A DNA stretch of 64,000 nt, from sequence record OM386655.1. One strand, written 5' to 3'. The translations under genes were made by a program, and so were the position numbers. This DNA comes from Escherichia phage vB_EcoM_ESCO10. Shown here piece after piece: positions 57,472-64,000 of this stretch. Positions within the stretch are counted from its first letter, which is position 1. The number at the start of each line of letters is the position of its first letter. The notes beneath the pieces were generated by a model. It saw only the letters and a list, made by a program, of their open reading frames with translations, was not told where the DNA came from and did no database searches.

Positions 57472-59031
57472 ATGAAAAAGAATGCATTAGTACAAAAATG
57501 GTCCGCTCTGCTGGAAAACGAAGCTCTTCCTGAAATCGTTGGTGCTTCTAAACAAGCCATCATCGCTAAAATCTTTGAAAACCAGGAACAAGATATTCTG
57601 ACCGCTCCTGAATATCGTGACGAAAAAATCTCTGAAGCATTTGGTTCTTTCCTGACTGAAGCCGAAATCGGTGGTGACCACGGTTATGATGCTACCAATA
57701 TCGCAGCTGGCCAGACCTCTGGTGCAGTAACTCAGATTGGGCCGGCAGTAATGGGTATGGTTCGTCGTGCTATTCCTCATCTGATTGCTTTTGATATTTG
57801 TGGTGTTCAGCCTCTGAATAACCCTACTGGTCAGGTATTTGCACTGCGTGCAGTATATGGTAAAGACCCTGTAGCTGCTGGTGCTAAAGAAGCTTTCCAC
57901 CCGATGTATGCTCCGAACGCTATGTTCTCTGGTCAGGGTGCTGCTGAAGCTTTCGAAGCTCTGGCTGCAAGCAAAGTTCTTACCGTTGGTAAAATTTATT
58001 CTCACTTCTTCGAAGCAACCGGTTCTGCACACTTCCAGGCTGTTGAAGCTGTAACCGTTGATGCCGCCGCTACTGATGCTGCTAAACTTGACGTTGAAGT
58101 TACCAAACTGCTCGAAGCTGGTAAGCTGGCAGAAATCGCTGAAGGTATGGCTACTTCTATCGCCGAACTTCAGGAAGGCTTTAACGGTTCCCAGGATAAC
58201 CCGTGGAACGAAATGGGCTTCCGCATCGATAAACAAGTTATCGAAGCTAAATCCCGTCAGCTGAAAGCAAGCTACTCCATCGAACTGGCACAGGACCTTC
58301 GTGCAGTACACGGTATGGATGCAGATGCTGAACTGAGTGGTATTCTTGCTACTGAAATTATGTTGGAAATCAACCGTGAAGTTATCGATTGGATTAACTA
58401 TTCTGCACAGGTTGGTAAATCTGGTATGACCAACACCGTTGGCGCTAAAGCTGGTGTGTTTGACTTCCAGGACCCGATTGATATCCGTGGTGCTCGTTGG
58501 GCCGGTGAAAGCTTTAAAGCTCTCCTGTTCCAGATTGATAAAGAAGCCGCCGAAATCGCTCGTCAGACCGGTCGTGGTGCTGGTAACTTCATCATCGCTT
58601 CCCGTAACGTAGTTAACGTACTGGCTGCAGTTGATACTTCTGTAAGTTATGCCGCTCAGGGTCTTGGTCAAGGTTTCAACGTTGACACTACCAAAGCAGT
58701 ATTTGCCGGTGTTCTTGGTGGTAAATATCGCGTTTACATCGACCAGTATGCTCGTGCTGATTACTTCACCATCGGTTATAAAGGTTCTAACGAAATGGAC
58801 GCAGGTATTTACTATGCTCCTTACGTTGCACTGACCCCACTGCGTGGTTCCGATCCGAAGAACTTCCAGCCGGTAATGGGCTTCAAAACTCGTTACGGTA
58901 TCGGTATTAACCCGTTCGCTGACCCAGCTGCTCAGGCACCTACCAAACGTATTCAGAATGGTATGCCGGACATCGTTAACAGCCTCGGTCTGAATGGTTA
59001 CTTCCGTCGCGTTTACGTTAAAGGTATCTAA
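57472..59031 (+). CDS. 23: gp23 major capsid protein
   Basis: 519 aa (T4 521); paralogous to the two downstream gp24-like proteins; terminator hairpin after stop. Confidence 0.97.
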   Translation: MKKNALVQKWSALLENEALPEIVGASKQAIIAKIFENQEQDILTAPEYRDEKISEAFGSFLTEAEIGGDHGYDATNIAAGQTSGAVTQIGPAVMGMVRRAIPHLIAFDICGVQPLNNPTGQVFALRAVYGKDPVAAGAKEAFHPMYAPNAMFSGQGAAEAFEALAASKVLTVGKIYSHFFEATGSAHFQAVEAVTVDAAATDAAKLDVEVTKLLEAGKLAEIAEGMATSIAELQEGFNGSQDNPWNEMGFRIDKQVIEAKSRQLKASYSIELAQDLRAVHGMDADAELSGILATEIMLEINREVIDWINYSAQVGKSGMTNTVGAKAGVFDFQDPIDIRGARWAGESFKALLFQIDKEAAEIARQTGRGAGNFIIASRNVVNVLAAVDTSVSYAAQGLGQGFNVDTTKAVFAGVLGGKYRVYIDQYARADYFTIGYKGSNEMDAGIYYAPYVALTPLRGSDPKNFQPVMGFKTRYGIGINPFADPAAQAPTKRIQNGMPDIVNSLGLNGYFRRVYVKGI

Positions 59032-59045
59032 GATATAACCTTATT

Positions 59046-59072
59046 ATGGGAGACTTCGGTCTCCCATTCTTG
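59046..59072 (+). terminator. terminator after gene 23 (UUCG tetraloop hairpin)
   Basis: ATGGGAGAC-TTCG-GTCTCCCAT followed by a T-rich tract; same hairpin occurs at 21006..21025. Confidence 0.65.
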
Positions 59073-59080
59073 TTTCTGTA

Positions 59081-59347
59081 CTATACAATCTTGACTCTGC
59101 GATTGATAATATCGCGGAAGTCAATACGATTTTCTTGGATTTTCAACCAGTTGCCGGATTTGTCTTTGGTGTGGGTAGAATATTCACCGTTCCACCAGAA
59201 GTCAGTAGCATAAGTCATGGTTTCGTATTTCTTAACTAACGCATTAACTGCATTACCGTTAGGATTGCGGCCAAATTTTTCTACCAAGGCTTTGATGTCT
59301 TTATCAAGAGCGGAAAGTGTAGTACGAATAAAGTTTAACTTGTTCAT
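59081..59347 (-). CDS. hypothetical early protein embedded between genes 23 and 24
   Basis: Start placed at ATG 59347 behind GAGGAGA SD; early-promoter cassette at 59377..59406; T4 carries segD at this position. Confidence 0.5.
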   Translation of the reverse strand: MNKLNFIRTTLSALDKDIKALVEKFGRNPNGNAVNALVKKYETMTYATDFWWNGEYSTHTKDKSGNWLKIQENRIDFRDIINRRVKIV

Positions 59348-59376
59348 TTTTAATCTCCTCATGTTTTGATAGGTCT

Positions 59377-59406
59377 ATAGTAACACGTGATAACCTTGGT
59401 GTAAAC
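59377..59406 (-). promoter_or_regulatory. early promoter cassette for the minus-strand gene between 23 and 24
   Basis: GTTTAC 59401..59406, 18 nt, TACTAT 59377..59382; conserved leader. Confidence 0.55.
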
Positions 59407-59412
59407 AACTTT

Positions 59413-59420
59413 TATAAATA
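59413..59420 (+). promoter_or_regulatory. late promoter (TATAAATA) for gene 24
   Basis: Exact TATAAATA 28 nt upstream of ATG; divergent from and abutting the minus-strand early promoter. Confidence 0.65.
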
Positions 59421-59448
59421 AACATATACCCTCAATAAGGAAAGCGCA

Positions 59449-60729
59449 ATGGCAAAGATTAACGAATTACTGCGCGAGTCAACAACTACTACCAGCAACT
59501 CATTGGGTCGCCCTAATCTTGTTGCTTTGACCCGTGCTACCACTAAACTAATTTATCGCGATATCATCGCTGAACAGCGTACAAACCAGCCTATCGCTGC
59601 GTTATACGGTGTCAAATACCTTACCCCTGATAATGAATTTAGCTTCCAGACTGGTGCTACTTACGGTGGTGAAGTTGGTTCTAAAGACCGTGAAACTATC
59701 CCGGAATTAACAGATAAGTCCCAGGCTATTGCCAAGGGTGGCTACTTTAAGTATCAGAATGTGGTTTATAAGGCTCTCGAATCAAGCCCTCTCGCATCTA
59801 CTAGCGCTACAGAATTGTCTGAAGCCCTCCAAGAAGGTTTAGTATCATTAACGTGTCGTTTGGTTCCAGATGCAGCCCACACAGAGAAATTCGAAGCAAA
59901 CGATGTCGAAATTAGCAATGCTGTATTCCAGGTTAATAAATGGAACGCTCCTGTTAAGTCTCGTAAACTTAAAACTTCTTTGACTGTGGAATTAGCCCAA
60001 GATATGGAATCTAATGGCTTCGACGCGCCGGCGTTCTTAGAAGACCTTTTAGCTACTGTAATGGCAGATGAAATCAATAAAGACGTATTACAATCCTTGA
60101 TTACAGTATCTAAACGTTACAGAGTAACAGGTGTATCTGATAACGGAATTATTGATTTATCTTATAATTCTGCTCCAGAAGGCGCACGTAAATTGTACGA
60201 AATGGTTTGTGAGATGAATTCCGAAATTCAGAAAACTACTTCTTATTCCGGTACGTTTGTTGTTGCCTCTAGTCGTGTGGCTGCGATGCTCGCAGGTTCC
60301 GGTTGGTTGAAACATAAACCTGAAGATGAGGCTTGGCTCCCAGAAACAGCTTATGGTTATTTGATTAATGGCTTACCTGTGTTCTGTGATGTGAATAGTC
60401 CATTGGATTATGTTACCGTAGGTGTTAAAGAAGACTACGGCGGTAATGAAGTTGTTGGTTCTATTTTCTACGCCCCGTACACCGAAGGTTTGGATTTAGA
60501 CGATCAAGAACACGTGGGTGCTTATAAGGTTATTGTAGACCCGGATAGTTTACAACCTTCAATTTCTCTAATGGTCCGTTATGCACTTTCGGCTAACCCT
60601 TATACTGTAGCTAAAGACGATAAAGAAGCTCGTATTATCGACGCAACTAATATGGATTTAATGGCAGGCCAGAGTAATATGTCATATCTGCTTGGTGTTA
60701 AACTTCCTCCAATTATTTACGAGGCATAA
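59449..60729 (+). CDS. 24: gp24 capsid vertex protein
   Basis: 426 aa, highly similar to T4 gp24 (MAKINELLRESTTT.SNS.GRPNLVALTRATTKLIY...). Confidence 0.9.
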   Translation: MAKINELLRESTTTTSNSLGRPNLVALTRATTKLIYRDIIAEQRTNQPIAALYGVKYLTPDNEFSFQTGATYGGEVGSKDRETIPELTDKSQAIAKGGYFKYQNVVYKALESSPLASTSATELSEALQEGLVSLTCRLVPDAAHTEKFEANDVEISNAVFQVNKWNAPVKSRKLKTSLTVELAQDMESNGFDAPAFLEDLLATVMADEINKDVLQSLITVSKRYRVTGVSDNGIIDLSYNSAPEGARKLYEMVCEMNSEIQKTTSYSGTFVVASSRVAAMLAGSGWLKHKPEDEAWLPETAYGYLINGLPVFCDVNSPLDYVTVGVKEDYGGNEVVGSIFYAPYTEGLDLDDQEHVGAYKVIVDPDSLQPSISLMVRYALSANPYTVAKDDKEARIIDATNMDLMAGQSNMSYLLGVKLPPIIYEA

Positions 60730-62013
60730 ATGAAAAAGATTAATGCATTAATACAAGAATCAACTTTGACGGCGGCGAACCAGGTCGCCCGTCCTAATCT
60801 TCTTTCATATACCCGAGCAACCAATAAAAGAATTTTTAAAGCCCTTGTTGCTGAACAAAAAACTACTCAGCCTGTAGCAGCATTATATGGCGTCCGTGTT
60901 TTAAACCCAGATGATAAAATGACTTATCTTGGTGGAGCTACCTTCGCAGGTGAAATTGGTATGTTTGAACGTAAAAACATTCCTGAGTTCACTAATAAAG
61001 ACGAAGCCTATGCTGCTGGTGATATGTTCCAATTTGAAAGCATAGTTTTCAAGGTATTAGAAGCTTCTCCATTTGCCGGAACCACTGAAACCGATTTAGG
61101 TGAAGTTATTTCAGAAGCTATTGCAGCGGGTCATATTCGTATGATGTCTGATGCAGCCTTTACCAATAAATTTGAAAAAGGGCATCCTGAGATTGCTGAA
61201 GCCGGGTTCCGTATTGATAAGTGGCAGACTGAAGTTAAATCACGTAAACTTAAAACTTCTTTGACTGTAGAACTGGCTCAGGATTTAGAATCTAACGGGT
61301 TTAATGCTCCGGACTTTATCGACAATATTTTGGCTATCCAAATGGCTGAAGAAATCAATAAAGACGTTCTACAATCTTTAATTACCGTGAGTTCACGTTT
61401 TAAAGTCCAGGGTGTTTCCGAAAAAGGTGTACTTAATCTTACTGATGCCGCTTATGATAATGCTCAGGACCGCGCGCGTACTTTATATTACTATATGTGT
61501 GAAATGAATTCTGCGGTTCAACGCCAGACTTCTTTTGCAGGTACTTATGCAGTAGCTAGTTCGCGTTGTGCCGCTATTTTAGCTGCGTCCGGTTGGGTTG
61601 AGAAAAAAGAAGACCAGGACGAATTGGCTTATGGTATATTAAAGAATGGACTACCTCTTTATGCTGATATGAATAGTCCGTGTGATTATGTTATTGTTGG
61701 TGTAAATGCTGATATGGGTGAAGGACAGACGGTCGCATCTTTGTATTATGCGCCATATGTAGAAGGCCTGGAAAACGTAGATGATGAGGGTGATACTTCT
61801 GTAGGTGAATTTAAGGTTATTGTAGACCCGGAAAGTTTGCAACCTACCGTAGCCCTGTTGGCTCGATATGCACTGACAGCAAACCCGTATACCGTTGCCA
61901 AAGATGATAAAGAAGCTCGTATTATTGATGGGTCCGATATGGATAAGATGGCTAACCAAAGTCAATTGAGTTCTTATCTTGGTGTTAAACTTCCTCCATT
62001 GGATAAAAACTAA
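60730..62013 (+). CDS. gp24 paralog (second capsid vertex-like protein)
   Basis: 427 aa, roughly half identical to the upstream gp24 by eye (shared KSRKLKTSLTVELAQD, YAPY.EGL, ANPYTVAKDDKEARIID). Confidence 0.85.
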   Translation: MKKINALIQESTLTAANQVARPNLLSYTRATNKRIFKALVAEQKTTQPVAALYGVRVLNPDDKMTYLGGATFAGEIGMFERKNIPEFTNKDEAYAAGDMFQFESIVFKVLEASPFAGTTETDLGEVISEAIAAGHIRMMSDAAFTNKFEKGHPEIAEAGFRIDKWQTEVKSRKLKTSLTVELAQDLESNGFNAPDFIDNILAIQMAEEINKDVLQSLITVSSRFKVQGVSEKGVLNLTDAAYDNAQDRARTLYYYMCEMNSAVQRQTSFAGTYAVASSRCAAILAASGWVEKKEDQDELAYGILKNGLPLYADMNSPCDYVIVGVNADMGEGQTVASLYYAPYVEGLENVDDEGDTSVGEFKVIVDPESLQPTVALLARYALTANPYTVAKDDKEARIIDGSDMDKMANQSQLSSYLGVKLPPLDKN

Positions 62014-62036
62014 AAAGGGCCTTGCGGCCCTTTATC
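62012..62036. terminator. bidirectional terminator between gp24 paralog (+) and rnlB (-)
   Basis: AAAAAGGGCC-TTGC-GGCCCTTT with A/T runs on both sides. Confidence 0.7.
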
Positions 62037-62038
62037 GT

Positions 62039-63046
62039 TTATTTGGATACTAATTCAATCCACACAGCTCGTAGCGTATCTTTAACACACTCAATGAGCT
62101 GCTTTTTAACTTCAACAGGATTTTCTGCATCGGTTAATTCTAATTCTTCACGGGACGCCTCTTCCAAAATATCTTGGACTGTTAGTCCCATTACCTTTCC
62201 GAAATCCTTAGGCGTTACTTCACCAATCTTACTGATAACATTGTTAATACGGTTAACAGTCACATAATCAGTGAATTGCCACATCAAGTCCATGTCATCT
62301 TGGGACAACACAACAGCAGCCTTGATAGGCTTATCAGACTTTTTCTTTTCACTGAATTTAGAGTTCTTACATTTAATCGCTACACGATTTCCATTTGGAA
62401 GCCAGGTAGGAACATCAGGTTTCAGTACAAAGCCTTCAGCCGTAAATACTTTGCCTTCAACCTTTGGAATAAAATCAGTCGAGTTTGCGATAGTCAGGCC
62501 TGCATTATCCACTGCAAAATTGTAATCAGGAACCACAGAATCAAAATCATTAGGGAGCTTAATAAGGTCTTCAAAGCTACCAGTAGCCAGACATGGAGCA
62601 ACTTTAAACTTATGGATAATGCAGAATGCTTCCATCAATGTATCAGTCAGAACAGATTCTGTGCCGTCGTCTTTAGTAACGCGGATATCGAACACATAAA
62701 AATCTTTATCACCATAATCAACATTCTTCTGAATACCTGAACCGGCGAACTCACCATAAATCTGGTACGACTGATAATCAATCGATTCAATTAGATGCTG
62801 AACAGATTTAATAGAATCAGCATAATTCTTTAAAACAATTTCATAGCCATAGAAATCTTCGGCTGGGAGAATTGGGCCAGTGCGCTTGGCGCATGTGACT
62901 GCGTCACGTTCTATGATTAGACTAAAGTTCGTACCATGAATCTTTTCACGAGCTACCCATTCACCATCGGTCATACCATGGGTACGGAGTTTTTCAATGA
63001 ACTTATTGTTGTAGTGGTTTTCCAGACTGCTATATTTCTTGAACAT
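62039..63046 (-). CDS. rnlB: RNA ligase 2
   Basis: 335 aa, highly similar to T4 Rnl2 ([19 protein letters not shown]...[13 protein letters not shown]... with KxHG ligase motif). Confidence 0.9.
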
Positions 63047-63432: not shown

Positions 63433-63522
63433 AGGAGTTTTATACCAGATATTCTTGAACGAAAGATTTACTTTACAACCGCTAGTACCTTTAATAAATA
63501 TTAAATTAATAACGGGGGATTT

Positions 63523-64000
63523 ATGACACAAACTACAGGTGAAAAAGAAGGTGTATTTTACGGTTATTCTCTTTATGATTTGAATAAAGAAAAACTAATA
63601 ACTTTTGATGAATTACTTACGGGTATTCGAGGAGAGCCTGGAGAAAATGGCGATATTGGACCAAAAGGTGACCAAGGTCCTGTGGGACCCCAAGGTATTC
63701 AAGGGGAAACAGGGGCCCAAGGTATTCAGGGTATTCAAGGTCTAAAAGGTGATAAGGGTGACCAAGGTATTCAAGGACTAAAAGGAGATAAAGGCGACCA
63801 AGGTATTCAAGGAGTTCCTGGAACTCAGGGTCCACAGGGTATTCAAGGTCTAAAAGGTGATAAGGGTGACCAAGGTATTCAAGGGGAAACAGGGGCCCAA
63901 GGTATTCAGGGTATTCAAGGAGTTCCAGGTGCCAAAGGAGATATAGGCCCAGTCGGTCCGGCAGGTTTAACATGGAAAGGTTCTTGGAATATTGCAACTG
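63523..64000 (+). CDS. collagen-like (Gly-X-Y repeat) protein, 3' truncated by window edge
   Basis: ATG 63523 behind GGGGG SD; frame 1 open to window end; about 38 uninterrupted Gly-X-Y triplets from 63622; missing from ORF track because no stop in window. Confidence 0.7.
   Translation, partial: MTQTTGEKEGVFYGYSLYDLNKEKLITFDELLTGIRGEPGENGDIGPKGDQGPVGPQGIQGETGAQGIQGIQGLKGDKGDQGIQGLKGDKGDQGIQGVPGTQGPQGIQGLKGDKGDQGIQGETGAQGIQGIQGVPGAKGDIGPVGPAGLTWKGSWNIAT
63622..63963 (+). repeat. Gly-X-Y triplet repeat region with longer direct repeats
   Basis: ggtattcaaggtctaaaaggtgataagggtgaccaaggtattcaagg recurs around 63841 and in diverged form around 63721/63766. Confidence 0.8.

Follow-up and report, generated by a model that had tools for sequence, protein, structure and literature searches.

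The genome of Escherichia phage vB_EcoM_ESCO10 carries two adjacent genes, 24a and 24b, whose products are identified by full-length similarity as T4 gp24-type capsid vertex proteins and as true paralogues of each other. Both lie in the 64,000-nucleotide stretch analysed here (the window; sequence record OM386655.1), where an initial annotation had described them as a tandem duplication of the vertex gene. Such a two-gene vertex module is already known, having been present in GenBank annotation since the JS98 genome record, and a 2004 J. Bacteriol. paper on JS98 is said to have noted the gene 24 duplication in that phage. Added here are the orthology between T4 gp24 and 24a, the age of 24b and the constraint upon it, the conserved coupled operon, the location of the 24b-specific changes, and evidence for a swapping of modules between lineages. 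We consider it probable that 24a and 24b form a JS98-type two-gene module that is an exchangeable allele of the T4-type single gene 24, with both products serving as vertex subunits and with separate homopentamers as the favoured arrangement.

The gene pair and its late transcription unit

The initial annotation placed two gp24-like genes of 426 and 427 aa side by side, and the coordinates proved exact (Table 1). BLASTP aligns 24a and 24b over their full length with 236 identities in 428 positions (55%, with 75% positives; E 4e-178), bearing out the estimate by eye that the copies are roughly half identical. At the DNA level they are 62% identical, and the longest exact run is 26 nt. The product of gene 23, gp23, is ~28% identical to either copy, and all three proteins are members of Pfam family PF07068 (Gp23 family): 24a scores 328.7 bits over residues 19–417 and 24b 332.1 bits over residues 19–419, against a curated cut-off of 24.4 bits. 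Within this family both copies are far nearer to gp24 than to gp23 along their whole length. T4 gp24 (PDB 1YUE) aligns end-to-end with 24a at 665 bits, and with residues 1–424 of 24b at 505 bits, whereas the gp23 chains reach only 49 and 47 bits, respectively; the first copy is thus the closer one to T4 gp24, as the initial annotation had stated. Since each copy matches the solved T4 gp24 structure over its full length, we regard the fold of both as settled, and the same alignment reveals no domain gain or loss in 24b relative to gp24.

Table 1. Genes and predicted expression signals of the gene 24 region, numbered from the first letter of the window
Feature	Position	Strand	Remarks
Gene 23 (gp23)	57472–59031		upstream of 24a
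Intrinsic-terminator-like hairpin, ATGGGAGAC TTCG GTCTCCCAT	59046–59067	+	3' of gene 23; followed by a T-rich tail
T4-type late promoter box, TATAAATA	59413–59420	+	28 nt 5' of the 24a ATG
24a ribosome-binding site, AAGGAAAG	59437–59444	+	relatives keep (A)AGGAAA
Gene 24a (ORF list)	59449–60729	+	426 aa; T4 gp24 orthologue, predicted capsid vertex protein precursor
24b ribosome-binding site, GAGG	60721–60724	+	inside the last 24a codons, five bases upstream of the 24b ATG
Gene 24b (ORF list)	60730–62013	+	427 aa; second, earlier-diverged paralogue, predicted vertex protein
Bidirectional terminator hairpin, AAAGGGCC TTGC GGCCCTTT	62014–62033		common to 24b and convergent rnlB
rnlB	62039–63046	minus	convergent with 24b

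The signals around the two genes are those of a single late operon. The predicted hairpin behind gene 23 parts the end of the gene 23 transcript from the gene 24 unit. The late promoter box TATAAATA upstream of 24a is the sole exact match within positions 59000–62020; it lies 5' of 24a in 7/7 two-copy genomes compared, and is also seen ahead of the lone gene 24 of the Gaprivervirus P479 and of a T4-like phage. A promoter of its own for 24b was considered and rejected, as no exact TATAAATA box occurs inside or after 24a; the nearest variant, with one mismatch, is a single site inside 24b at 61668. Sigma-70-like matches in the region were no commoner than in shuffled sequence. At the junction between the genes, the 24a stop codon TAA (60727–60729) directly abuts the ATG of 24b, and an abutting or overlapping stop and start with an upstream GAG(G) recurs in 7/7 two-copy genomes compared. 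We read this TAA-ATG junction behind GAGG as a translational-coupling arrangement. Judged by its one TATAAATA promoter, the terminators on both sides and the coupled junction, the pair constitutes one late transcription unit, from which we infer that both genes are read from one late bicistronic mRNA and are translationally coupled. A single coupled mRNA suggests that the two proteins may be made in comparable amounts. Codon usage is alike (ENC 42.1 for 24a vs 40.8 for 24b; CAI against gp23 0.41 vs 0.42); both codon usage and coupling are weak proxies for stoichiometry.

Distribution, age and probable exchange of the two-gene module

A Megablast search with positions 59000–62100 returned full-length matches of ~90% from Escherichia phages MN04, JS98, IME341, IME281 and LHE83, and matches of 85–88% DNA identity from VR5, JS10, Bp7 and others; the matches place the window phage among the JS98-like (Dhakavirus-like) T-even phages. 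JS98 itself (GenBank EF469154, Dhakavirus) has genes 24a and 24b, annotated as 'gp24 head vertex protein', in the identical order, with identical lengths of 426 and 427 aa and an identical abutting junction. Protein identity between the two phages is 96.0% for 24a and 96.5% for 24b, and DNA identity ~90%; the difference is one of sequence divergence only (~10% of DNA) and suits a separate species or strain within one group. The same pair appears under other names elsewhere: 24a/24b in IME08, 'capsid vertex protein I/II' in VR5, VR20 and VR26, 24(1)/24(2) in VR7, gp108/gp109 in Salmonella phage S16, and 'head vertex protein I/II' in CGG4-1.

A tblastn search with 24b as query found gp24 homologues at 1536 places in 1418 phage records and, with the cut-off set so that single-copy gp24 drops out, a 24b orthologue in 116 phage records. 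The possibility, raised at the outset, that close relatives would expose the second copy as a recent assembly artefact is contradicted by the presence of the same pair in these 116 independent records; along with the 62% DNA identity and the 26-nt longest run, they rule out an artefact and a recent duplication alike. We inspected the two-copy genomes of JS98 (Dhakavirus), VR20 (Gaprivervirus), S16 and CF-SP2 (Gelderlandvirus), CIP9 (Kanagawavirus), F48 (Marfavirus) and Cronus (Roskildevirus), in every one of which 24b lies directly 3' of 24a. The module is thus present in six sampled genera, Dhaka-, Gapriver-, Gelderland-, Kanagawa-, Marfa- and Roskildevirus, as the string gene 23, 24a, 24b and convergent rnlB, each copy being orthologous to its own clade. 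A single gene 24 occurs in Tequatrovirus, Mosigvirus, Moonvirus, Karamvirus, Jiaodavirus and Krischvirus, and also in Acinetobacter phage Ac42 and Aeromonas phage 44RR, so that the statement that T4-type phages have one such gene holds in the genomes compared. At an identity of at least 80%, 24a and 24b were each found in 91 records, with nearly equal organism counts; these numbers, compared as totals and not as record-by-record lists, give no sign of a JS98-type 24a without 24b.

To place the two copies relative to single-copy gp24, we applied neighbour joining to 23 gp24-type proteins, with 500 bootstrap replicates (all trees here are distance-based, with 13–23 taxa). The seven 24b sequences form a clade with 100% bootstrap at the end of a long stem branch. 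The 24a sequences of six genera form another (100%), as do the single genes of Tequatro-, Mosig-, Moon- and Karamvirus, the T4 group (100%). The 24a clade, the P479 gene and the T4 group are joined at 98.8%, and with Cronus 24a at 95.2%; all gp24 and 24a sequences of Tevenvirinae, including Jiaodavirus and without 24b, are held together at 77%. The tree fixes no order of the 24b clade versus Jiaodavirus and Acinetobacter phage Ac42. T4 gene 24 accordingly falls with 24a (98.8%) and 24b in a clade of its own, a topology that identifies T4 gp24 as the orthologue of 24a, and 24b as an ancient paralogue, older than the divergence of the Tevenvirinae genera in which it is found. Phages of the T4 group have one gene, orthologous to 24a, and no counterpart of 24b; a Tequatrovirus gp24 is 71% identical to 24a, and the T4-type gene resembles 24a in its place after gene 23 and in its late promoter.

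Within genomes, 24a and 24b are 52–57% identical in 7/7 cases. Because this value is constant, the copies must have diverged before the genera separated, without homogenisation; gene conversion between them is ruled out by the same constancy across the seven genomes. The initial proposal of two gene 24 paralogues therefore stands in so far as these are true paralogues, but the pair is neither peculiar to ESCO10 nor recent, given its spread over six genera at this identity.

The distribution of the module conflicts with the relationships of the surrounding genes. As gp23 was too conserved and gave a poorly resolved tree, we discarded it as a species-tree marker and used concatenated gp17, gp18, gp20, gp21 and gp22 (2264 columns) instead. 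In this flanking-gene tree the two-copy phage S16 is sister to the one-copy Moonvirus CF1 (100%), the two-copy F48 is sister to the one-copy JD18 (87%), and P479 is nearly identical to VR20. In the gene 24 tree, by contrast, the 24a sequences of S16 and F48 lie within the two-copy clade, and the Moonvirus gene goes with the T4 group. P479 shows this best: its gp23 is 97.7% identical to that of the window, its gp17 and gp20 are virtually identical to their VR20 counterparts, and yet it has a single intact gene 24 of 426 aa followed directly by rnlB. This gene is 69% identical to 24a and 53.5% to 24b. A blastn hint that it might be a 24a/24b hybrid was not upheld, the protein being 24a-like throughout in a sliding-window comparison. 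One divergent gene 24 in the place of the module argues for an exchange of one- and two-gene modules by recombination, and the most economical reading is that the two would be alternative cassettes swapped by homologous recombination via their conserved flanks. Some independent losses of 24b may have occurred as well.

Constraint on both copies and the sites where they differ

Purifying selection on both copies is strong. In a comparison of the window with JS98, dN/dS is 0.039 for 24a and 0.052 for 24b, and between the window and VR20 it is 0.040 and 0.024, respectively; gp23, at 0.085, is equally or less constrained than either. These values of 0.02–0.05 rule out pseudogenisation or relaxed selection of 24b, and across genera the protein divergence rates of the two copies are approximately the same. 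The paralogues are least alike across the I domain with its linkers (35–53% identical over residues ~60–160) and most alike in the spine-helix region and towards the C terminus (68–71% identical). Within each clade, too, variation is highest in the I domain, as would be expected for an exposed protrusion. We then counted as fixed those changes that are the same in all 24b (or all 24a) sequences and differ from a residue invariant in all single-copy gp24. There are 17 such changes in 24b, and five, all conservative, in 24a.

These data bear on the alternative that the copies are redundant or a backup, either being able to build all vertices; retention of both would then reflect dosage, antigenic or surface variation in the exposed I domain, or evasion of a host defence that recognises a vertex protein. 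With no more than five changes, all conservative, 24a looks able to do the whole job alone; both copies vary most in the exposed I domain; and a single-gene module works in almost the same background (P479 vs VR20). In T4, moreover, point mutants of gp23 can replace gp24, which is thereby bypassed altogether (PMC3012670, PMC9546572). Redundancy is, however, not expected to hold both copies at dN/dS 0.02–0.05 across lineages with saturated synonymous sites, nor does it lead one to expect that this type of 24a would seemingly never occur without 24b (91 vs 91 records). As to host defence, gp24 is not known to be sensed by any such system. On balance we regard redundancy as unlikely, although it is the strongest of the alternatives.

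The positions of the 24b-specific changes bear on how the subunits might be arranged. Nine of the 17 fall in residues 8–68 (L8I, V25L, A26S, T32N, L34R, Y36F, K56R, Y57V and T68G), and the changes are concentrated in the N-terminal arm and first I-domain linker. Within a pentamer of the expanded T4 head, gp24 residues 26–29 form a parallel beta pairing with an I-domain linker of the next subunit, and residues 11–20 extend onto the neighbouring gp23 hexamer (PMC9546572). With seven sequences per clade, and with the structural positions taken from that study (PMC9546572), the pattern suggests a retuning in 24b of the contact between neighbouring subunits, with which self-matched pentamers would fit better than free mixing. 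Obligate heteropentamers, in which 24a and 24b co-assemble in each vertex at a mixed stoichiometry, would account for the strict co-occurrence of the copies and for coupled translation from one mRNA, which is typical for subunits of one complex. A symmetric five-fold ring cannot take two subunit types, though, and changes in the contact of N-arm and I-linker between pentamer neighbours would point to self-matched interfaces (PMC9546572), which leaves co-assembly quite improbable.

The propeptides bear on whether 24b reaches the head. Residues 1–10 are MAKINELLRE in 24a, where LRE at positions 8–10 is the L-x-E motif of the prohead protease, and MKKINALIQE in 24b, with the I-x-E motif IQE at the same positions. 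An L/I-x-E motif is found at residues 8–10 in all seven 24a (LRE, LKE) and all seven 24b sequences (IQE, IHE, IRE, IYE). In T4, the first 10 residues of gp24 are cut off by the prohead protease gp21, and mature gp24* begins at residue 11 (PMC9546572); the T4 gp24 PDB chains likewise align from residue 11 of 24a and 24b. T4 gp24 (PDB 1YUE, 5VF3, 7VS5) resembles both copies in family, length and 10-residue propeptide motif. Because a cleavage site that acts only inside proheads has been kept, we take it as an indirect indication that 24b enters them. Co-transcription, coupled translation, the protease site, purifying selection and strict co-occurrence make the expression of 24b and its incorporation into proheads likely. 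The initial reading of the two paralogues as vertex heterogeneity or a specialised vertex subunit stays a hypothesis. In the searchable literature we found no virion proteomics or cryo-EM of a two-copy phage, and nothing in full text on the function of the second copy or its presence in virions; T4 gp24 was the only gp24 recovered in a PDB sequence search. That 24b has left the vertex, as a prohead-only assembly factor or a capsid-fold protein elsewhere, e.g. near the portal, would suit the more derived copy (17 fixed differences vs 5 for 24a) and its long stem branch, but is barely credible given full-length alignment to gp24 without domain gain or loss, a retained propeptide motif, and a rate and constraint equal to those of 24a.

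Two proposed vertex subunits in a prolate head

The explanation that we favour, a two-gene module specifying two vertex subunits, would run as follows. Late in infection, 24a and 24b would be made in similar amounts as precursors, both of which would enter the prohead, where the gp21 protease would take the first 10 residues off each. Both would then be subunits of the 11 non-portal pentameric vertices, and the two would be jointly required in phages with the two-gene cassette. Two kinds of homopentamer at different vertices of the prolate head would be favoured over freely mixed pentamers, because the 24b-specific changes hit elements that lock neighbouring subunits of one T4 pentamer; this is the weakest step. 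The module as a whole would act as an exchangeable allele of the T4-type single gene 24. A more specific form, which we put forward tentatively, has three capsid-fold proteins in the shell, with 24a and 24b pentamers occupying different vertex classes, e.g. the apical vertex vs the two rings of five, and with one- and two-protein alleles swapped by recombination.

Against the favoured explanation stands the uniformity of the T4 vertices: across the 11 of them, all 55 gp24* subunits adopt practically one conformation (PMC9546572), so there is no obvious structural need for two proteins. P479 manages with one gene 24 beside a near-identical gp23, and the shell protein therefore does not dictate a second one. 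A parallel is the gp23/gp24 paralogy of T4-like phages, which follows the same principle of a tandem capsid-fold duplicate specialised for a subset of lattice positions; gp23 and gp24 are ~28% identical and have distinct known roles, in hexamers and pentamers, whereas 24a and 24b are 55% identical.

The puzzle that emerges is why over 100 T-even-type phages should retain a pair of vertex proteins, both strongly constrained, where T4 needs one and can bypass even that. The natural swap in P479 offers a ready-made genetic test. If the paralogues do mark different vertices, nature would have supplied a simple case of capsid subunits specialised by position in a prolate head, and this, if true, would bear on models of head length and vertex placement as well as on capsid engineering and display on T4-like phages.

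Synonymous divergence of gene 23 and the gene 24 pair

Measured against the two-gene Dhakavirus JS98, dS is 0.19 for gene 23 (major capsid protein) and 0.55 and 0.52 for 24a (the T4 gp24 orthologue) and its paralogue 24b, placing gene 23 roughly threefold below both. Codon bias is also much stronger in gene 23, with an ENC of 33 versus 41–42 for 24a and 24b. The low dS reflects either very strong codon selection on gene 23 or a shared history for gene 23 that is more recent than that of the gene 24 module.

Features of the window and of comparison records
Feature	Location	Strand	Remark
Gene 23	window 57472-59031		
ORF, function unassigned	window 59081-59362	-	93 aa; between gene 23 and 24a
24a and 24b	window 59449-62013	+	
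Collagen-like ORF	window 63520-64000	+	extends past window end
Tandem DNA repeat	window 63727-63926		within collagen-like ORF
Single gene 24, P479 (MW269952)	L015 2001-3281		
I-TevIII-like homing endonuclease gene, Salmonella phage S16	L017 9211-9816		between prohead core genes and gene 21
Split portal gene, Citrobacter phage CF1	L023 7654-9215		two CDS
Split rnlB, CF1	L012 3856-4856		two CDS

Small and mobile genes around the head cluster

The 93-aa ORF, which has no Pfam match, is kept in JS98 (orf173), VR20 ('similar to VR7 gp190') and P479, and in one Mosigvirus the corresponding position is occupied by a small ORF resembling it. In IME08 and IME341 the gene 23–24 interval additionally holds a homing endonuclease gene, that of IME08 being segD; the S16 insertion is a further case of mobile endonucleases within the head-gene cluster.

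At the window end, the collagen-like ORF begins MTQTTGEKEGVFYGYSLYDL... and continues into a long G-X-Y repeat (GEPGENGDIGPKGDQGPVGPQGIQGETGAQ...), and its DNA is tandemly repetitive with periods of 36, 72 and 108 bases. The same gene is present in VR5 (91%) and VR7 (88%), labelled 'hypothetical' or 'tail fiber protein' in the records. At this position JS98 has hoc, on the opposite strand.

Gene 24 replacement in P479

Because the CF1 gene splits are probably frameshift sequencing errors, the CF1 portal protein was excluded from the concatenated tree of flanking genes.

In Escherichia phage P479, a single, intact but divergent gene 24 (69% to 24a) replaces the 24a–24b pair, while the flanking genes are nearly identical to those of its fellow Gaprivervirus VR20; the P479 record annotates neither this gene nor rnlB. 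This replacement is a natural module swap, and as such offers a handy genetic test.
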